This document shows positions 5,891 through 62,931 of a stretch of 64,000 nt of DNA, in pieces (positions within the stretch are counted from its first letter, which is position 1; each line of letters starts with the position of its first letter). The translations under genes were made by a program, and so were the position numbers. The stretch lies in assembly GCA_040753085.1 (NCBI GenBank), contig JBFMHI010000002.1, positions 4,087-68,086 on the forward strand. The letters run 5' to 3'. This DNA comes from a bacterium. Its GTDB lineage: Bacteria > UBA9089 > JASEGY01. Under the pieces are notes generated by a model. The model did no database searches. It saw nothing but the letters and a program-made list of their open reading frames with translations, and was not told the DNA's origin.

Positions 5891-7486
5891 TCAGACTGAG
5901 TGGTTACCTTCTGCCTTCATTACCCGGCGTAAAATCCGGTTTAGTTTTTCCGGTCTGTATGGCTTAGCGACCGTATCATAAAAACCGTAGTCTTTAAAGT
6001 CGGCCAGCACTGGATAGTCAGAGTAGCCGCTGGCTACAATCACTTTCACCTTGGGATCGATCTCGATCAGCTTGGAAATGGTCTCTTTCCCTCCCATCCC
6101 GCCAGGAACGACTAAATCTAAGATAACCGCATCAAAGGGCTGGTCGAATTCTTTGGCCTTTTGGTAGAGTTTAATGGCTTCATCTCCATCACAGGCTGTC
6201 TCTACATTATATCCAAAGGTCTCCAGGGCCTCCCTAATGATCTGTAAGATATCTTCTTCGTCGTCCATGAGAAGGATCTTTCCCTTTCCTTGGGCAGGCT
6301 CCTCGATCTCTTCCTCCTTTTCAATCACCGCCTCTTGGAAAGAGGCCGGGAGGAAGATGACAAAGCTTGTTCCCTTGCCAGGCTCAGACTCTACCTTAAT
6401 CTCTCCATTATGTCTGATAATAATAGAATGGGCGATGGCCAGTCCCAGGCCACTTCTTTTCTCTTTGGTGGTAAAATAGGGGTCAAATATATGGGGCAGA
6501 TATCCTTGCGAGATACCGGTTCCGTAGTCTCTTACCAGAATCTTTACATATTTGCCTTCTGCTAAAAGTGGTCTTTCTCCCAGTCTTATCTCTGTATTCT
6601 CTGCCCAAACCTCTATTCTACCGCCGGCCGGCTGGGCCTCTCTGGCGTTGACGATCAGATTGTTAAGGGCCTGAACAATCTGGGTTTGGTCACATTCGAC
6701 CGGCCAGAGGTCGTGGGAGATAGATAAATAGCACCGAAGATTAGAACCTGCCAGGCCAAAACCAACCGAATCCGTAATGAGCCTCGAGATAAAAACAGTC
6801 TCCTTGATCGGCGCGCCGCCTCTGGAAAAAGTAAGCAGTTGGTGGGTCAGGTTTCTGGCTTTATCCGAAGCCTTTTCCGCTTGATCCAACCTCTTAAAGA
6901 CCGCATCTCCAGGCCTTAGATCCATCTTGGCCAGGGCAATATTGCCCAGGATTACGGTCAGGATGTTATTAAAATCGTGGGCCAGACCTCCCGCCAGAAC
7001 ACCGATAGATTCGAGCCTTTGAATCTTCTCTCGCTGAAGCCTTTCTTCCATCTTCTTGCGCTCAGTAATGTCTCTGATAATCCCAATACTTCCGAGCAGC
7101 TTCTTATTCTTTTCTACGACAGGTCTGTCCCATTTCCCAAAAGAATGCAGCTCTGCCCAACAATAATCTGCTTCTTTATCTTTTAACCGGAGCCGCACCT
7201 CAAGGTTTTTAGTCATCCTCTCTACCGTCCGTCTCTCATCAAAAAACTTGGGGGAGTCTTCATCCCCGGTTATTCTTCCCTTGTATTTTGGTAAGGCCAC
7301 CAAGTGGCTGACATTCTCAAAATCATCAGGATGGATTATCTCCTTGAAGTGTTTCCCCATGAGTTCTTCCGGATTATAGCCTAATTGCCTGACGGCATTA
7401 TTTAGAAAGGTAAATCTTCCTTCGGCCTCAACCTCATACACTATATCCGGGATTGTTTGAATAAAGGTTCTGTATCTTTCTTCCAT
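5891..7486 (-). CDS. PAS-domain hybrid sensor histidine kinase / response regulator
   Basis: N-terminal PAS region, HisKA H-box LAHDFNNIL, HATPase_c region, C-terminal receiver (KILLMDDEEDIL...DAVILDLVVPGGMGG). Confidence 0.85.
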   Translation of the reverse strand: MEERYRTFIQTIPDIVYEVEAEGRFTFLNNAVRQLGYNPEELMGKHFKEIIHPDDFENVSHLVALPKYKGRITGDEDSPKFFDERRTVERMTKNLEVRLRLKDKEADYCWAELHSFGKWDRPVVEKNKKLLGSIGIIRDITERKKMEERLQREKIQRLESIGVLAGGLAHDFNNILTVILGNIALAKMDLRPGDAVFKRLDQAEKASDKARNLTHQLLTFSRGGAPIKETVFISRLITDSVGFGLAGSNLRCYLSISHDLWPVECDQTQIVQALNNLIVNAREAQPAGGRIEVWAENTEIRLGERPLLAEGKYVKILVRDYGTGISQGYLPHIFDPYFTTKEKRSGLGLAIAHSIIIRHNGEIKVESEPGKGTSFVIFLPASFQEAVIEKEEEIEEPAQGKGKILLMDDEEDILQIIREALETFGYNVETACDGDEAIKLYQKAKEFDQPFDAVILDLVVPGGMGGKETISKLIEIDPKVKVIVASGYSDYPVLADFKDYGFYDTVAKPYRPEKLNRILRRVMKAEGNHSV

Positions 7487-10310: not shown

Positions 10311-10414
10311 GTAACTATTCAGGTGGATAGGCTGAAGGCTTTTAGAAATAAATACGGAGGGCATATTATTGGACTTCAGCCTTCAGTCTTCAGCCTATCT
10401 ACCTGAGTAGATAC
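10311..10414. repeat. hairpin element of the CTGAAGG heptamer family (imperfect termini GTAACTATTCAGG / CCTGAGTAGATAC)
   Basis: Inverted heptamer arrays gctgaagg / cttcagccttcagtcttcagcc; related copies at 46010-46137 and 54783-54851. Confidence 0.6.
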
Positions 10415-13300: not shown

Positions 13301-13918
13301 TCACCAATATCTTCCTACGTAATCTTCAAACAGCCTGCTTACCTCTTCCGGATTTACACGGTCATCTCTCTCTTCAATTACATCCGCCAACTTTTGCTTA
13401 AACTCTTCTTCCTCGGTCTCAGTCATACCCCGGTCAGGATACCTTTGTCTAAGTTCACTGGCCTCCTGGCTGATCTCCTCCAATCTCTTTTCAAACCGCT
13501 CTTTCCTCCTTTTGGCGATTTCCCCTATTTTAAAAGGTATCTCGACATATTTCCTCATCAACCTGTCTTTCTCTTGTTCGGAAAAAGAAGAACCAGGCCC
13601 TCTCAGGATATCTTCCAGTCTCTCCCTGAGCCGCCTGAATCCGGCTTCCTTCCGGTACGGGCTAATATCCCTTTGTCCCAATTTCTCGGCTTCCTGGGCC
13701 AGCTCTTCCATCTCCTCCTTCATCGCCGAAACGGCCCGGGATGATCTTTCTCCTTGCCACCCCTCTTTCCTCGCGACATCCTCTTCTCTCCCGGTCTCTA
13801 TGGTAGAGTCTCCGCTGGCCGATGAAGGGGGAGGCATTTCCTCTCTGGCGCAACTCAGGGTCAAAAGTAGAATTAGTAACCATAAGCCGGTGGTCTTTTT
13901 TCTCTTTCTGGAAAACAC
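13301..13918 (-). CDS. hypothetical highly charged lipoprotein (coiled-coil)
   Basis: Signal peptide with LTLSC lipobox; E/K/R-rich helical sequence. Confidence 0.5.
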   Translation of the reverse strand: MFSRKRKKTTGLWLLILLLTLSCAREEMPPPSSASGDSTIETGREEDVARKEGWQGERSSRAVSAMKEEMEELAQEAEKLGQRDISPYRKEAGFRRLRERLEDILRGPGSSFSEQEKDRLMRKYVEIPFKIGEIAKRRKERFEKRLEEISQEASELRQRYPDRGMTETEEEEFKQKLADVIEERDDRVNPEEVSRLFEDYVGRYW

Positions 13919-13923
13919 GAATT

Positions 13924-14038
13924 AATCGCGAATCGCGGATCGCGAATTGCGAATTAAAAAATAGATTCGCGATTCGCAATTCGAGATTCGCGATTCGATA
14001 TGAATGCTTCCTACATTTTCTTCATAACTTTATATTCT
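13924..14038. repeat. ATTCGCG/AATCGCG heptamer array followed by an approximately 80-bp unit (copy 1)
   Basis: aatcgcgaatcgcggatcgcgaattgcgaatt, then aaaaaatagattcgcgattcgcaattcgagattcgcgattcgatatgaatgcttcc...cattttcttcataacttt. Confidence 0.7.
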
Positions 14039-14070: not shown

Positions 14071-14215
14071 CTACTCCGCCAGGTGCTTGTCTATGAATGA
14101 TCCTTTGGCATATTCCAAGGAATCCAGATCGAGCCACCTGACGACATTATCAGGCAGATAATTCAGGAAGAATTCCTTCGCCGTGTCCCGGCGAGTAAAG
14201 ACCTCTTTGAAAAAA
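14071..14215 (-). pseudogene. N-terminal fragment of an Rpn-family (YhgA/transposase_31-like PD-(D/E)XK) recombination-promoting nuclease
   Basis: Minus-strand translation ...FFKEVFTRRDTAKEFFLNYLPDNVVRWLDLDSLEYAKGSFIDKHLAE* matches the conserved Rpn N-terminus (F.K.F....A.DFL...LP......LDL.TL.LE..SFI). It is truncated after about 45 aa and flanked by direct repeats. Confidence 0.45.
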
Positions 14216-14221
14216 CGGTTA

Positions 14222-14298
14222 CAAAAATAGATTCGCGATTCGCAATTCGAGATTCGCGATCCGATATGAATGCTTCCGGCATTTTCTTCATAACTTTG
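14222..14298. repeat. copy 2 of the approximately 80-bp ATTCGCG-containing unit (direct repeat of 13956-14038)
   Basis: Near-identical sequence: aaaaatagattcgcgattcgcaattcgagattcgcgatccgatatgaatgcttcc.gcattttcttcataacttt. Confidence 0.7.
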
Positions 14299-14408
14299 AC
14301 GGGAAACATGTTTCATTATAGCATATTCATTTAAAACTGTCAAGAAGGTTTCCCACCTTTCCCGCCACATAGAACCAAAAAAATTGTTCGGTTTATTAAT
14401 TTTTTCTC

Positions 14409-14723: not shown

Positions 14724-14797
14724 AGGCCAGTAGCTCTAACGGCTAGAGCACCGGACTCCAAATCCGGGTGTTGCGGGTTCGAATCCTGCCTGGCCTG
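14724..14797 (+). tRNA. tRNA-Trp (anticodon CCA)
   Basis: Hand-folded cloverleaf: acceptor AGGCCAG/CTGGCCT, D-arm GCTC/GAGC, anticodon stem CCGGA/TCCGG with loop CTCCAAA, T-arm GCGGG-TTCGAAT-CCTGC, discriminator G; no encoded CCA. Conserved rpmG-tRNA-Trp-secE context. Confidence 0.85.
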
Positions 14798-14861: not shown

Positions 14862-15070
14862 ATACTCGATACTCGATACTCGATGCTCGATACTCGATGT
14901 TCGATACTGGATATTGGATCCTTTACTAGCCTCGAGCATCGAGGATCGAGCATCGAGCATCGAGGATCGAGGATCGAGCATCGAGGATCGAGCATCGAGC
15001 ATCGAGGATCGAGGATCGAGGATCGAGGATCGAGCATCGAGGATCGAGGATCGAGCATCGAGCATCCAGC
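14862..15070. repeat. CATCGAG-family heptamer hairpin (left array CTCGATR about 6 units, centre GGATCCTTTACTAGCC, right array about 20 units of CATCGAG/GATCGAG)
   Basis: Directly visible tandem heptamers; it lacks the outer GTAACCGTTCA termini seen at other copies. Confidence 0.7.
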
Positions 15071-16188: not shown

Positions 16189-16337
16189 GTAACCGTTCAT
16201 CACATGATGCTTGATCCTCGATGCTCGATGCTCGATCCTCGATGCTGGTAAAGGATCCAGTATCCAGGATCGAGCATCGAGCATCGAGCATCGAGCATCG
16301 AGGTTGTGTCTTTGTGGCTTAGTGGCTGAACGGTTAC
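16189..16337. mobile_element. CATCGAG-family MITE (TIR GTAACCGTTCA / TGAACGGTTAC, inverted heptamer arrays around centre GGTAAAGGATCCAGTATCCAGG)
   Basis: gtaaccgttcatcacatgatg...ctcgatg arrays...catcgag arrays...ggctgaacggttac; inserted directly beside the previous element. Confidence 0.7.
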
Positions 16338-16824: not shown

Positions 16825-17349
16825 ATGCCCTTATTTATTGTGGCAGTAGCCTTTCTTTGTTTATTAGGAGCGTCTCCTACCTGGGCTGAGGAGAAATTTT
16901 ACCTGAATTCTATCGAATATCTTCAGGCTGAACCAGAAGGCGATAAACTGGGTCAGCTCTTTCAAGGTATTGAGCTGGAAAAGCTAAGCGAAAAAGGAGA
17001 TTGGGCGGAAGTTCGTCTAACCGGCTGGCTTAAAACCAGTTGGCTATCTACCCAGTCGCCCCAGACCAGAAAATATAAACCGCCTTTAGAGATTATAAAT
17101 CTTGAGGACCGTTTTTCAGATTATGGTGATTATATTCATATCTTAGGGGAAGTGAAGAATCAGGGACCCCAGGACTATAAGTTTTTGCTGGTGACGGTTA
17201 CTTTTTACGATCAAGACAAAAAGATAGTGGATACCACCACTACACTTATCTCCTCTTTGAAGAAAGGAGAGGTAAGACCCTTCAAGACTATATCTAAGAA
17301 TCACGAAACAATAAAGATTTATAAGGCGAAGGTGGAACCGGTTAATTAA
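16825..17349 (+). CDS. hypothetical secreted protein inserted between rplK and rplA
   Basis: 174 aa, signal peptide MPLFIVAVAFLCLLGASPTWA; no recognisable domain; unusual location. Confidence 0.5.
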   Translation: MPLFIVAVAFLCLLGASPTWAEEKFYLNSIEYLQAEPEGDKLGQLFQGIELEKLSEKGDWAEVRLTGWLKTSWLSTQSPQTRKYKPPLEIINLEDRFSDYGDYIHILGEVKNQGPQDYKFLLVTVTFYDQDKKIVDTTTTLISSLKKGEVRPFKTISKNHETIKIYKAKVEPVN

Positions 17350-17425
17350 CTATTAGGGCGATGTTCATCCTTTTGGCCATTTGTCGAATCGCTAATCTTG
17401 AATTGCGAATCGCCAATCTATCTTT

Positions 17426-17559
17426 GTAACCGTTCAGCACATGATGCTGGATGCTCGATGCTCGATCTTCGATGCTGGTAAAGGATTCAGTATCCAGGAT
17501 CGAGCATCCAGCATCGAGGATCGAGGATCGAGTTTGTGCCTTAGGGGCTGAACGCTTAC
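17426..17559. mobile_element. CATCGAG-family MITE (TIR GTAACCGTTCA / TGAACGCTTAC) nested between ATTCGCG heptamer arrays at 17385-17418 and 17572-17612
   Basis: gtaaccgttcagcacatgatgctggatgctcgatgctcgatcttcgatgctggtaaaggattcagtatccaggatcgagcatcc...ggctgaacgcttac, with flanks aattgcgaatcgccaatct and aattcgcaattcgcgatccgcgattcgcgatt. Confidence 0.7.
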
Positions 17560-17664
17560 CTAAGTCTTTTAATTCGCAATTCGCGATCCGCGATTCGCGA
17601 TTAATCCGTAAGCGGCCCCAACGATGAACAAGGCCACAATATTGTTAATGGTTAAGGAGGCAAG

Positions 17665-27469: not shown

Positions 27470-28456
27470 ATGTTCAAGATGGCTAATAATAGACAGATGA
27501 CATTATTAAAGGCAGAAGAGGAGCATATCAGGAGGGTTCTTCCCTTACTCCTAAAGAAAGATGACAGGTTTAGAACCGAGGTCTCTATTATCCTAAGCGA
27601 GGTCTTTGCCAAGAAGGATGAGCTAAGGATAGTTATAGAGGAGATTCAGAAAAGCAGAGAAGAGACAAGCCGAAGGTTTGAGGAGATGCGAGAAGAGACA
27701 AGCCGAAGGTTTGAGGAGATGCGAGAAGAGACAAACCGAAGGTTTGAGGAGATGCGAGAAGAGACAAACCGAAGGTTTGAGGAGATGCGAGAAGAGACAA
27801 ACCGAAGGTTTGAGGAGATGAACCAAAGGTTTGAAGAACATCGCGAAGAGACAAACCGAAGGTTTGAGGAGATGAACCGAAGGTTTGAAGAACATTGCGA
27901 AGAGACAAACCGAAGGTTTGAGGAGATGAACCGAAGGTTTGAAGAACATCGCGAAGAGACAAATAAGAGGTTTGAGGCAGTAGAAACCCAACTTCAGGAA
28001 CAAACAAAGCAGCTAAGGGAGCATTCAGTCCAACTTCAGGAACAATCAAGGGAAATAAGAAGGATGGGGATAAGCATCAGAACCGTAGGGGCAAGGTGGG
28101 GAATATTTGCTGAAGGGACAATCCGAAATACCTTAAAGGAGCTACTCCTCAAAAAGCTTAAAGTAAAAGAGGTATCCTCGTGGAAGGTAATGGATAAAGA
28201 GGGAAAGGTAGGTATTCCTAATTCAGAGGTAGAGGTAGACATCCTTATCCAGAATGAGAAGCATTTTCTAATAGAGATAAAATCCTCTGCCGATGAAGAA
28301 AATGTAGAGAGGTTTTATAAAATAGGAAATTTTTATTATGAGAAGACAAAGATTAAGCCAAATCTTATCTTTGTAGCGGTGGAGATGAACAAAAAGGGAG
28401 AAGACCTCTGCAAAAAACTAGATATCCAGCTTATAACCTACGAGGATTTGGACTGA
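27470..28456 (+). CDS. tandem-repeat coiled-coil protein with a C-terminal PD-(D/E)XK (restriction-endonuclease-like) domain, possibly DUF3782-like
   Basis: About nine 11-aa repeats REETNRRFEEM, then a C-terminal region with EVEVDILIQNEKHFLIEIKSS (D..E.K pattern) and LIFVAVEM; inserted between rpoC and rpsL. Confidence 0.65.
   Translation: MFKMANNRQMTLLKAEEEHIRRVLPLLLKKDDRFRTEVSIILSEVFAKKDELRIVIEEIQKSREETSRRFEEMREETSRRFEEMREETNRRFEEMREETNRRFEEMREETNRRFEEMNQRFEEHREETNRRFEEMNRRFEEHCEETNRRFEEMNRRFEEHREETNKRFEAVETQLQEQTKQLREHSVQLQEQSREIRRMGISIRTVGARWGIFAEGTIRNTLKELLLKKLKVKEVSSWKVMDKEGKVGIPNSEVEVDILIQNEKHFLIEIKSSADEENVERFYKIGNFYYEKTKIKPNLIFVAVEMNKKGEDLCKKLDIQLITYEDLD
27655..27985 (+). repeat. array of about nine 33-nt tandem repeats (gaagagacaagccgaaggtttgaggagatgcga) inside the CDS
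   Basis: Directly visible near-identical 33-mers; they produce the spurious antisense ORFs 27623-28003 and 27633-28049. Confidence 0.85.
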
Positions 28457-32723: not shown

Positions 32724-32811
32724 GCTCGATGCTCGATGCTCGATGCTGGGTAAAGGATCCCGTATCCAGGATCGAGCATCCAGCATCGAGGATCGAGCAT
32801 CGAGGATCGAG
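32724..32811. repeat. CATCGAG-family heptamer hairpin (no outer TIR) directly after the fusA stop
   Basis: gctcgatgctcgatgctcgatgctgggtaaaggatcccgtatccaggatcgagcatccagcatcgaggatcgagcatcgaggatcgag. Confidence 0.7.
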
Positions 32812-33215: not shown

Positions 33216-33473
33216 CGACCTGTACGGTTAGGTTGTAGACTACTGACGCTGAAAGCGTTGAATTTTAAATAGCCGTAGATGCAATCTCCGGAAACAAATC
33301 GCCACGCTCGACCCTGCAAGGGTCGAATATTATCCATCGCCTAGAATTCAACCCTTTCAGGGTTGAGATGTTCGTAGCTGTTTTACCTTCCGCAGGTTTC
33401 ACCTGTGGTTATGTAAAATTCAAACCTTTCAGGTTTGAAGGGAATTGCTTGTAATCTCTAACCGCACAGGTCG
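33216..33473. mobile_element. 258-bp MITE-like element (TIR CGACCTGTACGGTTA / TAACCGCACAGGTCG), internally a chain of short hairpins, perfect 8-bp TSD AAATAATT; second copy at 50696-50949
   Basis: AAATAATT at 33208-33215 and 33474-33481; internal hairpins gacgctGAAAgcgtc, cgaccctGCAAgggtcg, caaccctTTCAgggttg, caaaccTTTCAggtttg, ccgcaggtttcacctgtgg. The two copies are about 90% identical. Confidence 0.75.
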
Positions 33474-33570
33474 AAATAATTCCTGAGAAGGGCTGAAATC
33501 GGGGTGCCTCTTTTGGTTTGGCTGAATATTTAGATGGGGGAGTGCAGGATAAAAAACCATGAATAAACAA

Positions 33571-33600
33571 TCCGAAATCCGAAATCCGAAATCCGAAATG
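33571..33600. repeat. AATCCGA heptamer array (x4) immediately upstream of / overlapping the rplC start
   Basis: caatccgaaatccgaaatccgaaatccgaaatg. Confidence 0.7.
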
Positions 33601-34230
33601 CGATTAGGCATTTTAGGGAAAAAAATCGGGATGACTCAGATATTTGGAGAGGCCCAGCAGCTTATTCCAGTAACTGTTATTGAGACTAAGCCTTGTGTAG
33701 TAACCCAGGTTAAAAGCCGGGAGTCGGAGGGATATAATGCGGTCCAACTGGGCTTTGAAAAACAAAAAGAAGGGCTGGTGGCCAAACCCCTTTTAGGCCG
33801 GTTCAAGAAGGTTAAGATACCTCCTATGAAATATTTGAGAGAATTCAGGTTGGATGATATTTCGGGGCACGAAGTTGGCCAGGAAGTGAGAGTAGAAAGT
33901 CTCTTTAAGCCGGGAGAATATGTGGATGTCACCGGAACATCTAAAGGAAAAGGATTTGCGGGGGTGGTTAAGCGATGGGGTTTTAAAGGCGGGAAGGCCA
34001 GCCATGGTTCTATGTTTCACCGGGCGCCCGGTTCTATTGGCGCTTCAGCGGCTCCGTCCAGGGTCTTTAAAGGGACCAGGCTTCCAGGACGGATGGGGGG
34101 AAAACAGAGCACCATTCAAAATCTAGAGATAGTCAAGGTAGAGGCAGAGAAAAATTTGCTTTTAGTTAAAGGAGCGGCCCCCGGGAAAAAGGGGGAACTT
34201 CTGGTTATCAGGAAAGCGAAGAAGAGGTAA
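33598..34230 (+). CDS. rplC: 50S ribosomal protein L3 (start taken at the MRLGILGKKIGMTQIF Met)
   Basis: The canonical L3 N-terminus begins at the Met at 33598. The track start at 33559 would add an extension encoded by the heptamer array. Confidence 0.85.
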   Translation: MRLGILGKKIGMTQIFGEAQQLIPVTVIETKPCVVTQVKSRESEGYNAVQLGFEKQKEGLVAKPLLGRFKKVKIPPMKYLREFRLDDISGHEVGQEVRVESLFKPGEYVDVTGTSKGKGFAGVVKRWGFKGGKASHGSMFHRAPGSIGASAAPSRVFKGTRLPGRMGGKQSTIQNLEIVKVEAEKNLLLVKGAAPGKKGELLVIRKAKKR

Positions 34231-36923: not shown

Positions 36924-37574
36924 ATGGGGCAGAAGGTTCATCCGATTGGGTTTCGATTGGGCTATATCTATGATTGGCAGTCGAAGTGGTTTGCTAAAAA
37001 AAATTATGTCAAGAATTTACACGAAGACCTTAATATCCGTAATTTTATTAAAAAAGAATTGGCTCAAGCCGCTATCTCTAAGGTAACGATCGAGCGGTTC
37101 GGTCAAAAGACCAGGATTAATATCCATACCGCCAGACCAGGGATTGTTATTGGTCGAGGCGGGGCCGGCGTAGAAAAACTAAGAAAGCAAGTTCAGAAGA
37201 TGACCAATGATAAAGTGCATATTGATATCCAGGAGATAAGGAGACCGGAGTTAGATGCTCAACTGGTGTCAGAAAACATTGCTCAACAACTTACGAAAAG
37301 GATTTCTTTCAGACGGGCAATGAAGCAATCAGTCACCACCGCCCTTAGACATGGCGCCAAAGGGATCAAGGTCCAATGTGCCGGAAGGCTGGGTGGCGCT
37401 GAGATCGCCCGAACAGAGTGGTATCGGGAAGGCCGGGTCCCCTTACACACTATTCGGGCTGAAATAGATTACGGTTTTTCAGAATCACCCACAACTTATG
37501 GCCAAATCGGCGTTAAGGTCTGGATATTTAAAGGAGAGGTCATGCCTAAAGGGGCGACGGAGGTGAATATCTAA
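36924..37574 (+). CDS. rpsC: 30S ribosomal protein S3
   Basis: [13 protein letters not shown]...; KH domain. Confidence 0.95.
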
Positions 37575-37592
37575 TTAGCCATTAACAATTAT

Positions 37593-37754
37593 GTAACCGT
37601 TCATCCCATAAGGCTGGATGCTGGATGCTCGATTCTCGATGTTCGATCCTCGATGCTGGATACTGGATCCTTTACCAGCATCGAGGATCGAACATCGAGA
37701 ATCGAGCATCGAGCATCGAGGATCGAGTTTGTGCCTTAGGGGCTGAACGCTTAC
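37593..37754. mobile_element. CATCGAG-family MITE with TIR GTAACCGTTCA / TGAACGCTTAC and a perfect 8-bp TSD ACAATTAT
   Basis: ACAATTAT at 37585-37592 and 37755-37762; inverted heptamer arrays around centre GGATACTGGATCCTTTACCAGC. Confidence 0.8.
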
Positions 37755-37787
37755 ACAATTATTAATTGTTAATGGTAAATTATAATT

Positions 37788-42376: not shown

Positions 42377-42463
42377 GTAACTATTCAGCCACAAAGACAC
42401 TAAGACACGAAGATTATAAGAATTATTCTTTGTGCCTTTGTGCCTTGGTGGCTGAATAGTGAC
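42377..42463. mobile_element. GTGTCTT-family MITE (TIR GTAACTATTCAGCCAC / GTGGCTGAATAGTGAC) with a perfect 8-bp TSD AATTTACG, inserted into a CTATTCGGG/GTGTCTTCGTGGC repeat context
   Basis: AATTTACG at 42369-42376 and 42464-42471; internal arrays aaagacactaagacacgaag / ctttgtgcctttgtgcc. Confidence 0.75.
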
Positions 42464-44452: not shown

Positions 44453-44463
44453 TTAATAATTGG

Positions 44464-44597
44464 TAACCGTTCATCCCATGAGGCTAGAGGCTCGATCCTC
44501 GATGCTCGATGCTGGTAAAGGATCCAGTATCCAGGATCGAGCATCGAAGATCGAGCATCGAGTGGGTGTTTTTGTGCCTTACGGGCTGAACGCTTAT
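44464..44597. mobile_element. CATCGAG-family MITE (TIR GTAACCGTTCA / TGAACGCTTAT) with a perfect 8-bp TSD AATAATTG
   Basis: AATAATTG at 44456-44463 and 44598-44605. Confidence 0.8.
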
Positions 44598-46009: not shown

Positions 46010-46137
46010 ACGTAACTATTCAGGCAGATAGGCTGAAGGCTTTTAGAAATAAATGCGGAGAGCAGATGATTGCACGTCAGCCTTCAGCCTTCAGTCTTCA
46101 GCCTTCAGCCTTCAGTCTTCAGCCTATCTACCTGAAT
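46010..46137. repeat. CTGAAGG-family hairpin element (GTAACTATTCAGGCAGATAGGCTGAAGG ... (CCTTCAG)n ... CCTATCTACCTGAAT)
   Basis: Close relative of the 10311-10414 element; 8 tandem ccttcag/tcttcag units. Confidence 0.65.
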
Positions 46138-46158
46138 AAATTGTTAATGGGGTGCTAA

Positions 46159-48730: not shown

Positions 48731-48866
48731 GTAACCGTTCATCACATGATGCTCGATGCTCGATCCTGGATGCTCGATGCTCGATGACGGGATCCTTTTT
48801 TATCATCGAGGATCGAGCTTCGAGGATCGAGTTGGTGTCCTTGTGCCTGAGGGGCTGAACGTTTAC
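48731..48866. mobile_element. CATCGAG-family MITE (TIR GTAACCGTTCA / TGAACGTTTAC), TSD CAATTATC / CAATTATT (7 of 8)
   Basis: gtaaccgttcatcacatgatgctcgatgctcgatcctggatgctcgatgctcgatgacgggatccttttttatcatcgaggatcgagcttcgaggatcgag...ggctgaacgtttac. Confidence 0.75.
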
Positions 48867-50695: not shown

Positions 50696-50949
50696 GGTTA
50701 AGGTTGTAGACTACTACTGACGCTGAAAGCGTCAAATTTTAAATAGCCGTAGGTGCAAGCTACGGAAGATAAATACATCCGCAACGCTCGACCCTGCAAG
50801 GGTCGAATTATCCATCACATAGAATTCAACCCTTTCAGGGTTGAGCTGTGGTAGATGCTTCGTTTCCGCAGGTTTTACCTGTGGTTATGTAAAATTCAAA
50901 CCTTTCAGGTTTGAGGAGAATTGCTTGTAATTCCTAACCGTACGGGTCG
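50696..50949. mobile_element. second copy of the approximately 258-bp structured MITE (TIR CGACCTGTACGGTTA / TAACCGTACGGGTCG)
   Basis: About 90% identical to 33216-33473, including all internal hairpins. Confidence 0.75.
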
Positions 50950-50957
50950 AAATTTTT

Positions 50958-51245
50958 CGACCTGTGAAATAGGTTTATACAAATATCCCCCAATTAGGGT
51001 AAGAAAGAGAATAAACAGATCGCTCCTCTGGAGCTAATTTGTTATGAGAGATATATTCTACAAACATGTCGCTCCTCTGGAGCTAACCTGAATAAAGCTC
51101 CGTAGGAGAGCAATCTGTTTGTAGTATTTCGCAAAAGCAATATATTTGCAGCTCCGTAGGAGCGACCTGTTTTTAGTAGTAGAGCTTGAATATCTATGTC
51201 TATGGGAAGTTTCTTGCATTTTATTTAAATCTATTTCACAGGTCG
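50958..51245. mobile_element. 288-bp MITE (20-bp TIR CGACCTGTGAAATAGGTTTA / TAAATCTATTTCACAGGTCG) with a perfect 8-bp TSD AAATTTTT; the internal GCTCC-nnn-GGAGC hairpin units (GTCGCTCCTACGGAGC and its variant GCTCCAGAGGAGC) are arranged as a long palindrome; inverted copy at 62578-62866
   Basis: AAATTTTT at 50950-50957 and 51246-51253; the element is inserted immediately after the terminus of the previous element. Confidence 0.8.
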
Positions 51246-51261
51246 AAATTTTTCTTCACGG

Positions 51262-51294
51262 GTAACCGTTCATCCCATGAGGCTGAACGCTTAC
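51262..51294. mobile_element. minimal ('solo-TIR') CATCGAG-family element, GTAACCGTTCATCCCATGAGGCTGAACGCTTAC, with a perfect 8-bp TSD CTTCACGG
   Basis: CTTCACGG at 51254-51261 and 51295-51302; it contains only the two termini, with the heptamer core absent. Confidence 0.75.
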
Positions 51295-56378: not shown

Positions 56379-56467
56379 GTAACCGTTCATCCCTCGATGC
56401 TGGATCCCCGATGCTCGATGCTCGAGCATCGGGGATCGAGTTTGTGCCTTAGTGGCTGAACGCTTAC
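56379..56467. mobile_element. short CATCGAG-family MITE (TIR GTAACCGTTCA / TGAACGCTTAC)
   Basis: gtaaccgttcatccctcgatgctggatccccgatgctcgatgctcgagcatcggggatcgagtttgtgccttagtggctgaacgcttac. Confidence 0.7.
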
Positions 56468-56531: not shown

Positions 56532-58829
56532 ATGAAAGATTTCAATCTCTTACAGGTAAGCAGTATAATTTTACTCCTTTTGCTCTTCCTCCCTGGTTGC
56601 TGGACCAGGGATGAAGTAATGACCATCCGTCTTTGGGAATTCCCCCGCTGGCGTGAGGGGGATGAGCTGGACCGCTTTGTCTGGATCAAGCGTCAGATAG
56701 CCGAGTTTGAAGCGAGCCATCCTGGGGTCAAGATCGAGTTGACTGAGTTGACCTGGGATAGGGGCCAGGATAAGATCCGGATCGCCACCGCGGCCGGGTT
56801 GGGGCCGGACATTGTCTCCGGCAGTCTGCCGGTGGAATATATTGAAGCCGGAGTGATAGAACCAATAGATGATTATCTGGCTCTCGAGGATAAGAAAGAT
56901 TACTACCCGGCCGGCTTCAGCGCCTATACCTATAAAGGCAAACACTGGGGCTGGCCATGGTTTCTGACCGGTCAGATGCTTTTTTTGAATCTGGATATAT
57001 TTAAAGAACGGGGAGTGGAACCCCCACAGGGTCCCTGGACTTACGAAGAGTTTGCCGCTAAAATGAAGGCCATGACCTTTGATTCTGACGGAGATAAAAG
57101 GGTAGACACTTATGGCTTCGGCTTTACAGTCACTCCCGGCGCCACCGATATCTGGCCATTTCTTTATATGGATGGCGGCCGCGCCTTGAGTGATGATCTC
57201 ACGCAATATACCTTTGATGAACCACCTGGCGTCTCCGGCCTGAGCCAACTGCGGGACCTGGTCCATACCTACCGGGTGTCTTTACCGGAGAGTGGTGGTC
57301 TGAAAACAACCGACCTCTGGCAGGCCTTTGCCAAGCAGAGACGGATTGCCTGCGCTCCCTGGGGTATTTGGGCCATCCCTGCCCTAAGGTTTGATGAGGC
57401 CCAAAAAGCGAAGGGATTAACGGAGGAGGATTTCTTTGACTTCACGGTGGTCGGTTATCCTATGGGCAAGAGCGGCCAACCTTTAACTTTCATTGGGGTA
57501 AGTGGGTTCATTGTCTTTAAACAGCCTGACCCTGCCAGGCGAGATATGTGCATAGAACTGGCTAAATCTCTTACCAGCGGTCAGAACCAGAAGGCTCTGG
57601 CTGCTTATGGGGTCTTTCCTACCCGCGTCTCAGCCGGGAATATTTATCCGGACGATCCCTATATGACTAAGGCGGCTAAAATCCTTCAGGATGGCCTAAC
57701 TGTTCCGGCTCATCCTGATTGGGGTAAGATGGATGAGGTCATTCAGCGGCAGATCCAATTGGCTGTTTTGGGTGAAAAAAGTGCGGCTGCCGCCCTGACT
57801 GATGCCGGAGTAGAGGTTGAAGCTATCCTGTCTCAAAGGCTAAAGACCACTGCCGACTTGAAGGGCATTGGAGTCGGGGAAAAGGCGGGAAACTACCTCT
57901 ATCTTTTTCTATTTCTGGCTGGAGCCTTGATACTCTGGTTAGGACTGAAGATGAGGGGCATAAAGGAATCCACCCGCTTTGCCTACCTAGCTATTTCCCC
58001 GGCGATGCTTATCTTTGCCGTTTTCCTGGCCTTTCCGGTCGGTCGGGCCTTTTTATTGGCCTTTCAGGAATACGAAATCGGCGGCCCTATCCTGGGGAAT
58101 TGGGTCGGCGCCGACAACTTTCGGGCCTTAGCTAAAAATGAGGTCTTCTGGAAATCCCTGAAGAATACCCTGGTCTACACGGCCTTTACGGTCCCGATAA
58201 ATGTCCTGATTGCCCTTATTCTGGCTAGCCTCATTCATCCCTTATCCGACCGCATGCGGACCTTTTTCCGGGCGGCCTATTATCTCCCCCATGTCACCTC
58301 AGTAGTGGTCATCTCCATGGTCTGGCGCTGGCTTTTTGATTACAACTACGGTCTCTTAAACCAGGTCCTTACCGGCCTGGGCCTTGAAGGCCTTCACTGG
58401 CTGACTGATGTTCACCTGGCCATGGGCAGCATCATTGGCTCCAGCCTGCTTTACACCCCTGGCGGCCCGATTATTATCTATCTGGCGGCTCTGGCGGCCA
58501 TGCCTTCTTCCCTTCACGAAGCAGCCCTGATGGACGGGGCCGGGCCAATCCGCCGCTGGTGGCACATCACCCTCCCCCTGCTTCGACCCACTACCCTGTT
58601 TTTGTTAGTCACTACTTCCATCGCCTCCTTTCAGGTCTTTGCCCAGGTGCTCATTCTAACTGATGGCGGCCCTGGCTATGCCACTTCTGTCTTAGTTCAC
58701 CGCATCTACACCACCGCCTTTAGAGACTTTGACTTCGGCCTCGCCTCAGCTATGGCCTTGATTCTTTTTGTAGTCATTATGACTATCTCTGCCATCCAAT
58801 TTAAGATTTTCAGGAAAAAATGGGAGTAA
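56532..58829 (+). CDS. fused ABC transporter: carbohydrate substrate-binding lipoprotein (aa 1 to about 450) plus permease domain (aa about 460-765)
   Basis: Lipoprotein signal LLLLLFLPGCW; SBP family 1-like domain; then 6 TM helices with EAA loop EAALMDGAGPIRRWWHITLP in the same reading frame. Confidence 0.7.
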   Translation: MKDFNLLQVSSIILLLLLFLPGCWTRDEVMTIRLWEFPRWREGDELDRFVWIKRQIAEFEASHPGVKIELTELTWDRGQDKIRIATAAGLGPDIVSGSLPVEYIEAGVIEPIDDYLALEDKKDYYPAGFSAYTYKGKHWGWPWFLTGQMLFLNLDIFKERGVEPPQGPWTYEEFAAKMKAMTFDSDGDKRVDTYGFGFTVTPGATDIWPFLYMDGGRALSDDLTQYTFDEPPGVSGLSQLRDLVHTYRVSLPESGGLKTTDLWQAFAKQRRIACAPWGIWAIPALRFDEAQKAKGLTEEDFFDFTVVGYPMGKSGQPLTFIGVSGFIVFKQPDPARRDMCIELAKSLTSGQNQKALAAYGVFPTRVSAGNIYPDDPYMTKAAKILQDGLTVPAHPDWGKMDEVIQRQIQLAVLGEKSAAAALTDAGVEVEAILSQRLKTTADLKGIGVGEKAGNYLYLFLFLAGALILWLGLKMRGIKESTRFAYLAISPAMLIFAVFLAFPVGRAFLLAFQEYEIGGPILGNWVGADNFRALAKNEVFWKSLKNTLVYTAFTVPINVLIALILASLIHPLSDRMRTFFRAAYYLPHVTSVVVISMVWRWLFDYNYGLLNQVLTGLGLEGLHWLTDVHLAMGSIIGSSLLYTPGGPIIIYLAALAAMPSSLHEAALMDGAGPIRRWWHITLPLLRPTTLFLLVTTSIASFQVFAQVLILTDGGPGYATSVLVHRIYTTAFRDFDFGLASAMALILFVVIMTISAIQFKIFRKKWE

Positions 58830-59025
58830 CTATTCAGCCACGGATTAACCCGGATTAGCACGGATAAAATAGAATGAGTTTAAAATAGGGAAAAATAACA
58901 GAGGACATTATCGGGAGGAGCATTTGAAGTTTACAATTTGGAAGAGAAAGAGTTGAATTTAAACGATTCATATTATTAAAAAAAATCAGTGTTTCATCCG
59001 TGTAAATCTGTGGCTGAATAGTTAC
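58826..59025. repeat. hairpin element with TIR GTAACTATTCAGCCAC / GTGGCTGAATAGTTAC and CGGATTA-type heptamers, large central loop
   Basis: gtaactattcagccacggattaacccggattagcacggat ... tcatccgtgtaaatctgtggctgaatagttac; partial relatives at 53215-53260, 62367-62405 and 62880-62930. Confidence 0.6.
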
Positions 59026-59112
59026 TCGTGAACAAAGATTAGAGGGAAATCGAGGATCGAGCATCGAACATCGAGCATCGAGGATTATCGGGTGGCGGCG
59101 GGAGGCAGCGCT

Positions 59113-61555: not shown

Positions 61556-61640
61556 TGGATGCTGGATGCTCGATACTCGATACTCGATACTCGATGCTCG
61601 AGCCTCGAGTATCGAGTATCGAGTATAGAGCATCGAGGAT
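61556..61640. repeat. CATCGAG-family heptamer hairpin (no outer TIR)
   Basis: gatgctggatgctcgatactcgatactcgatactcgatgctcgagcctcgagtatcgagtatcgagtatagagcatcgagg. Confidence 0.7.
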
Positions 61641-62352: not shown

Positions 62353-62405
62353 AAGTTTAATAGATAGTAACTATTCAGCCACACAGATTTAAACACTGAT
62401 TTTTT

Positions 62406-62577
62406 GTAACCGTTCAGCCACCAAGGCACGAAGACACGAAGGGAAAAAAATATGTGTCTTAGAGAGCAGTAGAGCCATAGAGCAGCCGTTCTGGAACTTT
62501 CAGAAAAATCTCTAACTACTGCTCTGCTGCTCTACTGCTCTATTTTTGTGTCTTTGTGTCTTTGTGGCTGAACACTT
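62406..62577. mobile_element. GTGTCTT-family MITE (TIR GTAACCGTTCAGCCAC / GTGGCTGAACACTTAC) with a nested AGAGCAG/CTGCTCT heptamer hairpin
   Basis: Two nested inverted heptamer arrays (cacgaagacacgaag/gtgtctttgtgtctttgtgg and agagcagtagagccatagagcag/ctgctctgctgctctactgctct); the right terminus is interrupted by the next element. Confidence 0.7.
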
Positions 62578-62866
62578 ACGACCTGTGAAATAGGTTTAAA
62601 TAAAATGCAAGAAATTTCCCATAGACATAGATATTCAAGCTCTACTCCTACTAAAAACAGGTCGCTCCTACGGAGCTGCAAATATATGCTTTTGCGAAAT
62701 ACTACAAACAGATTGCTCCTACGGAGCTTTATTCAGGTTAGCTCCAGAGGAGCGACATGTTTGTAGAATATATCTCTCATAACAAATTAGCTCCAGAGGA
62801 GCGATCTGTTTATTCTCTTTCTTACCCTAATTGGGGGATATTTGTATAAACCTATTTCACAGGTCG
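62578..62866. mobile_element. inverted copy of the 288-bp MITE (TIR CGACCTGTGAAATAGGTTTA) with a perfect 8-bp TSD AACACTTA, inserted into the terminus of the preceding element
   Basis: AACACTTA at 62570-62577 and 62867-62874; the sequence is the reverse complement of 50958-51245 at about 95% identity. Confidence 0.8.
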
Positions 62867-62931
62867 AACACTTACAACTCATTCTATTTTATCCGTGCTA
62901 ATCCGTGTTAATCAGTGGCTGAATAGTTACG

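Follow-up and report, generated by a model that had tools for sequence, protein, structure and literature searches.

Shells of a miniature transposable element around separable heptamer palindromes in the ribosomal-protein operon spacers of a bacterial genome

Results

The stretch of DNA analysed here, the whole of which we call the window, comprises 64 kb of an uncultivated bacterium's metagenome-assembled genome (MAG; contig JBFMHI010000002.1, positions 4,087 to 68,086) and includes ribosomal-protein operons. In spacers of these operons lie short elements built of two layers, an outer pair of terminal inverted repeats and, inside it, a long palindrome of CATCGAG-type heptamers. A previous sequence-only reading of the window had listed eleven copies of a single MITE (miniature inverted-repeat transposable element). 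We have read each of these eleven sites and parsed it in heptamer register, and every site holds what had been described. As copies of one MITE, however, only seven stand, namely those with both termini (GTAACCGTTCA...TGAACGNTTAC), which we call family 1. The other four (14862-15070, 32724-32811, 59049-59083 with one arm, and 61556-61640) are CATCGAG-type arrays that have neither termini nor duplication. Pfam assignments confirm the setting in ribosomal-operon spacers: the flanking pairs are nusG/rplK, rplA with the 174-aa open reading frame (ORF) that follows rplK, fusA/rpsJ, rpsC/rplP, secY/adk, rpsD/rpoA and rplQ/recO. When up to one mismatch is allowed, GTAACCGTTCA occurs 15 times in the window where 0.38 occurrences are expected by chance, and the double heptamer CATCGAGSATCGAG occurs 65 times where 0.02 are expected.

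The family-1 elements measure 33-162 bp, and the ORFs over their arrays are only frames through the repeats themselves. Their terminal repeat is imperfect, about 22 bp with mismatches and with an 11-nt terminal core; the left end has the form GTAACCGTTCA-(T/G)C(C/A)C.. and the right end the form ..GGGGC-TGAACGCTTAC. The right end reads GTAAGCGTTCAGCC, starting with GTAAGCG, in five of the seven copies, and the left ends start with GTAACCG. In the representative copy (37593-37754) the left end GTAACCGTTCATCCCATAAGG is followed by eight CTCGATG-type units, the loop GGATACTGGATCCTTTACC, seven CATCGAG-type units and the right end TTTGTGCCTTAGGGGCTGAACGCTTAC. This copy is bordered by the duplication ACAATTAT (37585-37592 and 37755-37762) and lies at the tip of a hairpin that is rich in AT (37572-37591 / 37763-37782). 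The copy between nusG and rplK (16189-16337) has two perfect termini and the loop GGTAAAGGATCCAGTATCC, with flanks that agree in six of eight positions, and the copy upstream of rplA (17426-17559) interrupts the loop of a heptamer hairpin of GCGAATC type (17384-17425 / 17570-17602), with flanks that agree in five of eight. Between secY and adk (44463-44597) the duplication AATAATTG is perfect and the right end is mutated to TTAT, and between rpsD and rpoA (48731-48866) the flanks CAATTATC and CAATTATT agree in seven of eight positions. A short copy in a divergent intergenic region (56379-56467) has flanks that agree in six of eight. The smallest copy, at 51262-51294, is a 33-bp shell with no interior (GTAACCGTTCATCCCATGAGGCTGAACGCTTAC) and a perfect duplication CTTCACGG; it is either an internal-deletion derivative, formed across a GGCT microhomology, or a bare shell.

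The duplications described earlier, identical in eight of eight positions at 37593, 44463 and 51262 and in seven of eight at 48731, are real when set against a control in which left flanks were paired with the right flanks of other elements (n = 90 mismatched pairs). The mode of these control pairs was 2/8, and their maximum of 7/8 occurred once. Shifting the compared 8-mers outward by 8-24 nt abolishes the signal. With a further element at 42377, described below, the window holds four perfect target-site duplications, three of them in family 1, and one at 7/8.

Every one of the seven family-1 copies is oriented along the + strand: six have co-directional + strand genes on both sides, and 56379 is the copy in the divergent region. 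By our own arithmetic such agreement would arise by chance with p ~0.016 (two-sided), which suggests either that the opposite orientation is selected against in transcripts or that insertion is strand-biased.

The heptamer palindrome cannot simply be equated with the body of the MITE; it is a module that separates from the shell. Among the four sites without a shell, the array at 14862-15070 lies between a tRNA (14724-14797) and secE and has eight left and about 19 right units around a loop of the flipped type. The hairpin at 32724-32811 fills the fusA-rpsJ spacer and has the loop GGTAAAGGATCCCGTATCC, as in the shelled copies. A single arm of CATCGAG-type units at 59049-59083 lies 24 nt downstream of an element of a second family that ends at 59025, and the hairpin at 61556-61640 is built of CTCGATA/TATCGAG variant units. 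The loop GGTAAAGGATCCCGTATCC of the unshelled hairpin at 32724 recurs with one or two substitutions in the copies at 16189, 17426 and 44463. In 37593 and 14862 the loop is the exact reverse complement, and the shell of 37593 is in the usual orientation. Each arm has from 2 to about 19 units. Variants specific to one copy stand at mirrored positions, TTCGATC/GATCGAA and CTCGATT/AATCGAG in 37593, CCCGATG/CATCGGG in 56379 and CTCGATA/TATCGAG in 61556, and the two arms therefore co-evolve. That the hairpin can be separated from the shell follows from the loop shared with unshelled copies, the flipping of this loop, the variable unit number and the mirrored variants, and also from the bare shell at 51262, which keeps its duplication.

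The module is one of many types of heptamer hairpin in this genome and its relatives. Tandem Repeats Finder returned many further period-7 arrays in spacers, usually mirrored, with the units AATCGCG, AGTTTCG, GCGGATT/AATCCGA, CTATTGG, ATTACCG and GGATTGC, so that these 64 kb hold eight or more types of heptamer hairpin, the CATCGAG palindrome among them. The surroundings of the shells also contain palindromes. The flanks of 44463, 48731 and 16189 are AATTA-rich, similar to those of 37593, and the GCGAATC-type hairpin that is split by the shell at 17426 exists as an intact copy near 13920-14031 (uninterrupted at 13957-14031, with an inverted arm to ~13920).

Several observations were made beside these arrays. 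A 75-nt segment is present twice, at 13957-14031 and 14223-14297. The only transposase-like sequence of the window, which had rightly been said to hold no transposase, is a pseudogene fragment in this region: 14071-14370 (- strand), together with 13301-13918 (- strand), is the N-terminal fragment of a YhgA/Rpn-like PD-(D/E)XK 'Transposase_31' gene (E = 3.4e-10). A GCGAATC heptamer array and a GTAACCGTT remnant of 9 nt (14214-14222, after the second left-arm copy) precede it. At 33559-33610 the longest rplC ORF begins within an AATCCGA heptamer array (33569-33603) and has the odd N-terminus MNKQSEIRNPKSEMR; probably the true start of rplC lies downstream; alternatively, the coding sequence has taken in the array.

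As RNA, the segment 37572-37782, which includes the flanking AT-rich hairpin, folds at -125.8 kcal/mol (z = -18.2), in keeping with the very long hairpin described before. As DNA it folds at -79.4 kcal/mol (z = -18.6). Individual elements of 89-236 nt fold at -48 to -113 kcal/mol. An Rfam scan of the window returned tRNA only and no family that matches the elements. A consensus scan for terminators did not flag them either, and a reading as intrinsic terminators was set aside.

The sequence-only reading had proposed empty sites in relatives and duplications at further copies as tests of insertion. By their S3 proteins the relatives of the window are 95% and 86% identical, and the next ones about 70% (among them Desantisbacteria and Nitrospirota proteins). 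One spacer, rpsC-rplP, was compared, and it is free of the shell element in both near relatives (L121, rpsC 95% identical; L122, 86%). In L122 this spacer holds an AT-rich heptamer palindrome (736-792, AATTATC/AATTAAT) similar to the empty site as reconstructed. In L121 its place is taken by a TCATTGG/TCATTAG hairpin (1113-1223), and the rplV-rpsC spacer of L121 has another heptamer hairpin (365-461, GTGATCA/GTAATCG), again with units unlike those of the window. Heptamer palindromes turn over rapidly, with pairing kept, between genomes whose S3 proteins are 86-95% identical.

Further copies of the shell were found in metagenomes. Contigs were scanned with the conserved end GTAASYRTTCAGCCMCTAAGGCAC, and each terminus was paired with its best inward partner. 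This gave 92 loci, and the paired elements, 81-617 bp long and inserted in AT-rich targets, include 23 with perfect 8-bp duplications and six at 7/8, so that for the shell the duplication is reproducible. The 24-nt terminus is conserved across many sediment metagenomes; no further copies of the CATCGAG subfamily were found beyond the window. A scan of a genome collection with a 17-mer, too short a query, gave 120 chance matches; real are L120 and possibly L034. The first of these, another MAG, holds a 207-bp element with termini as in the window, a different heptamer hairpin inside and a perfect ACCTTCCG duplication. The second, a Nitrosopumilus (archaeal) MAG, has an element of ~235 bp at ~7251-7485 whose ends, GTAACCGTTCAGCC...GGGTTGAACGGTTAC, hint at a possible archaeal occurrence of this shell. 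A scan of viral sequences for (SATCGAG)4 returned plain direct simple-sequence repeats only, and a protein search with the translated heptamer array returned only repeat ORFs, from seemingly eukaryote-type and TARA contigs.

The largest of the metagenome elements (477-617 bp) have a single ORF, which encodes a GxxExxY protein (TIGR04256, E = 1.8e-41; Pfam PDDEXK_3, PF13366). The gene stands directly between inverted subterminal CAC(N)AAGG 8-mer arrays, in cassettes of 0.48-0.62 kb (L189:1846-2322, L145:635-1251, L210:2495-3111, L141:1148-1620, L162:984-1549, L225:1453-1930 and L250:3960-4420). The query GTAASYRTTCAGCCMCTAAGGCAC includes 13 nt of the cassette array, and the enrichment of GxxExxY among the matches is partly due to this construction. 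Some cassettes also have GTAAC...GTTAC shells with perfect 8-bp duplications. Those of L250, L215, L160 and L157 have no GTAAC shell; shell and cassette are therefore separable, as are shell and heptamer palindrome in the window. Fragments of the gene are retained in at least 11 shorter elements. Intact genes are under strong purifying selection, with a ratio of nonsynonymous to synonymous substitution rates (dN/dS) of 0.05-0.11 at dS 0.5-1.5, and across 25 aligned homologs the D...ExK motif has an invariant D and K and an E that is conserved in at least 90%. MAGs of WOR-3, Acidobacteriota and Desulfobacterales contain homologs at 85-97% identity. Homologs at 39-46% identity (L160, L157, L119) likewise stand between inverted arrays of 8-9-mers, some with CGCGGATTA-type units that resemble those of the window. 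AlphaFold on the shallow GxxExxY alignment reached a predicted local distance difference test (pLDDT) score of 39, and a sequence search of solved structures with the protein returned nothing. Downstream of the GxxExxY gene of a WOR-3 MAG (L249:4394-4900) lie about five tandem gene-less copies of the cassette ends, each with GCCAC 8-mers, an AT-rich core, 8-mers and GTGGC.

The link to the window lies in the ends, since the family-1 right end and both ends of the element at 42377 align with cassette ends. Inverted ends with GCCAC(N)AAGG 8-mer arrays are full in 42377-42463 and 62406-62579, and family 1 has them at the right end only (GTGCCTTAGGGGC). Aligned ends, inverted short-repeat arrays and, where a GTAAC shell is present, the 8-bp duplication are thus common to cassettes and window elements. 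Unlike the cassettes, the window elements have no gene, and their unit is CATCGAG and not CAC(N)AAGG; many cassettes, for their part, are without the GTAAC shell. A tblastn search found no trace of the GxxExxY gene in the window.

Other shell elements of the window had been missed before. A relaxed terminus search revealed an eighth shell element with a different interior (62406-62579, + strand, GTAACCGTTCAGCC...GGCTGAACACTTAC), in which CACGAAG 8-mers are combined with a hairpin of GAGCAGT type. The search further found GTAACTATTCAGCC, the terminus of a second family, at no fewer than six sites (1370, 10311, 39175, 42377, 46012, 58826-59025 and 62367-62930). The interiors of these other elements are mirrored arrays of CAC(N)AAG 8-mers, CTTCAGC 7-mers or CACGGATTAA 10-mers. 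The family-2 MITE at 42377-42463 (GTAACTATTCAGCC...GGCTGAATAGTGAC, 87 bp) has CAC(N)AAG 8-mer arrays and a perfect duplication AATTTACG (8/8), and in its sequence it corresponds to a GxxExxY cassette minus the gene. In the 200-bp element at 58826-59025 the CACGGATTAA arrays adjoin the termini. The element at 62367-62930 is inverted relative to it, and its interior is replaced by the 62406-62579 element, nested there, and by a third element. This third element (62580-62866, ends GACCTGTGAAATAGG) is inserted in the right end of 62406-62579 and flanked by duplicated GAACACTTAC. Inverted copies of the GACCTGTGAAATAGG-ended element, 93-98% identical, are seen at 50946-51254 and 62570-62878. A family-2 variant at 10311-10414 has CTTCAGC heptamers and a degenerate right end, with a sister copy at ~46012-46141.

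Discussion

The elements consist of a MITE shell around an independent heptamer palindrome, in a genome that has such palindromes in many of the spacers examined. As the explanation of the whole we consider it probable that the shell has been mobilised in trans. The outer layer would be a non-autonomous shell, inserted through 8-bp staggered cuts by a transposase supplied in trans; insertion in this way is supported by the terminal repeats, the 8-bp duplications and the sites without the element in relatives. The earlier claim of transposase-mediated insertion thus stands, for elements that are multi-copy and non-coding and have terminal inverted repeats and a real 8-bp duplication. Insertions land in AT-rich sequence, with four of the seven family-1 copies apparently in AT-rich spacer palindromes (clear for 37593 and 44463) and one in the loop of the GCGAATC hairpin. 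The inner layer, a palindrome of NATCGAG heptamers with a GGATCC-centred loop, behaves as a separate and unstable module. Its unit number may vary by replication slippage and its loop may invert by recombination between the arms, while the mirrored variants could arise by template switching within the palindrome or through selection for pairing.

The partner that supplies the transposase would be an IS66-family-like DDE enzyme, a view that we infer from the right end GTAAGCG and the 8-bp duplication. Insertion sequences (IS) of the IS66 family have a terminal repeat of 20-30 bp that starts with GTAAGCG and 8-bp direct repeats (PMC11946415); an example of such a repeat is GTAAGCGTCCGG... (PMC12888890). 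The window elements resemble them in the GTAAGCG of five of their seven right ends, in the repeat of ~22 bp and in the 8-bp duplication. They differ in the left ends with GTAACCG, in that the commonest terminus in metagenomes is GTAACTATTCAGCC (GTAACTA) and in that TnpA, TnpB and TnpC were not found. In addition, the subterminal 8-mer arrays and the heptamer core are absent from the descriptions of IS66 (PMC11946415, PMC12888890). IS66 is nevertheless the best available match among IS families, as judged from the literature and from the duplication lengths and terminal repeats of these families, although as a signature only. The earlier reading did not recognise the termini as those of a described element; they do have precedent, both in this signature of GTAAGCG and an 8-bp repeat (PMC11946415) and in the alignment of the right end with the ends of GxxExxY cassettes, which are widespread in sediment metagenomes.

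The search for the partner covered ORFs up to 3.5 kb from the 92 termini as well as every ORF of 150 aa or more from those loci. When these were clustered no multi-copy transposase appeared, and the ten largest ORFs look like host proteins by eye, with no Pfam scan made of them. Among 72,556 plasmids the terminus had two sub-significant matches (E = 2 and 6), in viral contigs it had none, and a literature search for the terminus strings returned primers only. Several points weigh against the picture of a shell mobilised in trans. An autonomous partner or transposase was found neither in the window nor in the 92 metagenome loci, the plasmids or the viral contigs. GTAAGCG stands on right ends only, so that the assignment to IS66 rests on GTAA and the 8-bp duplication. 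Three of the seven family-1 copies (16189, 17426 and 56379) have decayed duplications. All seven have a single orientation, which simple random insertion does not predict. Finally, transposition of the shell alone cannot explain the hairpins without termini.

In a different view of the hairpins, the host would keep them as functional RNA or DNA structures of its spacers, such as RNase III processing sites, mRNA 3'-end protectors or translational insulators, and the MITE would be only a vehicle. A hairpin is indeed present in many of the ribosomal-protein operon spacers examined, orthologous spacers of relatives keep one although its unit sequence has wholly changed, variants are mirrored on both arms, and all family-1 copies share one orientation, six of them between co-directional genes. 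RNase III is known to bind and cut the Correia elements (PMC2649163). On the other hand, copies vary widely in length, and loss of the hairpin can leave no more than a 33-bp shell (51262). Template switching in a palindrome predicts mirrored variants equally well, and the hairpins have no conserved position relative to start codons. We regard a host function of this kind as unlikely overall, but it is compatible with the trans-mobilised shell. The many copies, the length of the intergenic palindromes and their strongly biased orientation also recall REP/REPIN sequences, which would be spread by a RAYT transposase, an HUH tyrosine enzyme that uses single-stranded hairpins as its substrate. REPINs are short GC-rich palindromes that lack such terminal inverted repeats and leave the target site unduplicated. 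The elements described here have terminal repeats and 8-bp duplications at four sites of the window and 23 in metagenomes, and no RAYT gene was seen, which makes this origin very improbable. An assembly artefact, through collapsed or chimeric repeats at low-complexity sites, has to be considered because the sequence comes from a MAG and because assembly of heptamer arrays is difficult; unit counts could be wrong. However, the same architecture is found in independent assemblies from NCBI, JGI, ENA and Logan, and the flanking genes are intact and syntenic; as an account of the elements themselves an artefact is hardly credible.

The GxxExxY cassettes open another possibility. The inverted arrays of 7-10 nt units could be the ends of a widespread class of tiny mobile cassettes, of which no description was found and whose sole gene is GxxExxY, and the heptamer hairpins would then be gene-less derivatives, moved or maintained by the nuclease. 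The 0.48-0.62 kb cassettes do hold this gene alone, between inverted CAC(N)AAGG arrays, and its distant homologs (39-46%) also have inverted 8-9-mer arrays at their sides. Cassettes from Acidobacteriota and WOR-3 MAGs have the arrays without a GTAAC shell, one WOR-3 locus has about five tandem gene-less copies, and gene remnants persist in at least 11 short elements. Purifying selection, conservation of D...ExK, the spread of close homologs (85-97%) across several phyla, and the alignment of the family-1 right end and of the 42377 ends with cassette ends all fit in. Against this, the gene is not in the window, and neither the viral (SATCGAG)4 scan nor the protein search with the translated array yielded a cassette with CATCGAG units. 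In-frame stop codons occur in those cassette copies whose duplications are perfect (L145/L210, L189), which were therefore moved in trans, and part of the GxxExxY enrichment stems from the 13 nt of array in the query. We know of no way in which a hydrolytic nuclease of ~130 aa could join DNA or make 8-bp duplications. Such an origin of the hairpins seems quite unlikely to us. We are just as sceptical of its corollary, that the hairpins nest in the loops of other palindromes and that the GTAAC/8-bp shell is a second, independent mobile layer and an occasional carrier. In view of the query bias, the cassettes without a shell, the stop codons in copies with perfect duplications and the lack of a known mechanism for the 8-bp duplication, the GxxExxY nuclease is treated here as a passenger or accessory gene.

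What the shells and hairpins might do to the operons may be judged from known systems. Since copies lie inside co-directional operons, they would be expected to be transcribed, as near-perfect hairpins of 90-200 nt. The Correia elements of Neisseria offer the best model for such an effect, by analogy. They have 26-bp terminal repeats, a TA duplication and a core specific to Neisseria, and they carry IHF sites and no tandem-repeat core; in contrast, the duplication of the window elements has 8 bp and a varied sequence, and the sequences are unrelated. Correia elements are short intergenic MITEs that are co-transcribed with their neighbours and form hairpin RNAs (PMC2649163). By the same analogy, if the hairpins of the window act at all, they probably do so as RNase III substrates or as 3'-end stabilisers. 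[quoted passage not shown] It is alike in being a short hairpin MITE inside an operon. It differs, by description, in its duplication of 9 bp instead of 8 and in that no heptamer-array core is reported for it. Heptanucleotide repeats of cyanobacteria and Beggiatoaceae (short tandemly repeated repetitive sequences, STRR; TAACTGA) form intergenic 7-nt arrays, often next to start codons (PMC4679880). Heptamers are the commonest class of long simple-sequence repeats, polymerase slippage has been proposed for them, and the TAACTGA repeats are direct, with one inverted case in 170 sets (PMC4679880). Unlike these, the arrays of the window are mirrored hairpin pairs, some of them in a shell with terminal repeats and a duplication.

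Elements of this kind are known; this family, its nesting behaviour and the link to GxxExxY were not found in the literature searched. Unusual is first the density: the 64 kb hold at least 17 shell elements or hairpin modules, and many of these lie in the most conserved of the cell's operons. The layering, with shells in hairpin loops and hairpins in shells, implies that palindromes are preferred targets. The reach is wide as well, for the conserved 24-nt terminus is joined to GxxExxY cassettes that occur in several phyla at 85-97% protein identity. The window also lends itself to asking, in a natural setting, what amount of secondary structure can be borne by a polycistronic ribosomal-protein mRNA. 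If the GxxExxY cassettes were the source of the hairpins, this would give a function to the large GxxExxY/PDDEXK_3 family, for which no characterised role was found, and an origin to bacterial heptamer hairpins.

Further observations

The 174-aa ORF between rplK and rplA (16825-17349) has an FxLYD domain and a weak SH3_3 match, and it is an unusual insertion in the L11-L1 operon. A cyanobacterial origin of the window was set aside, because the putative rpoC is a single ORF of 1430 aa in the ORF list and the S3 relatives at about 70% identity are Desantisbacteria- or Nitrospirota-like. Downstream of rpoC, a 328-aa ORF (27470-28456) contains coding tandem repeats at 27657-28002, with periods of 33, 54 and 108 nt and up to 99% identity. 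The unusually long rpsJ-rplC and rplQ-recO spacers contain two further dispersed repeats (33239-33482 and 50713-50958), of 55 and 95 nt and 91% identical, which have small hairpins with GAAA loops.

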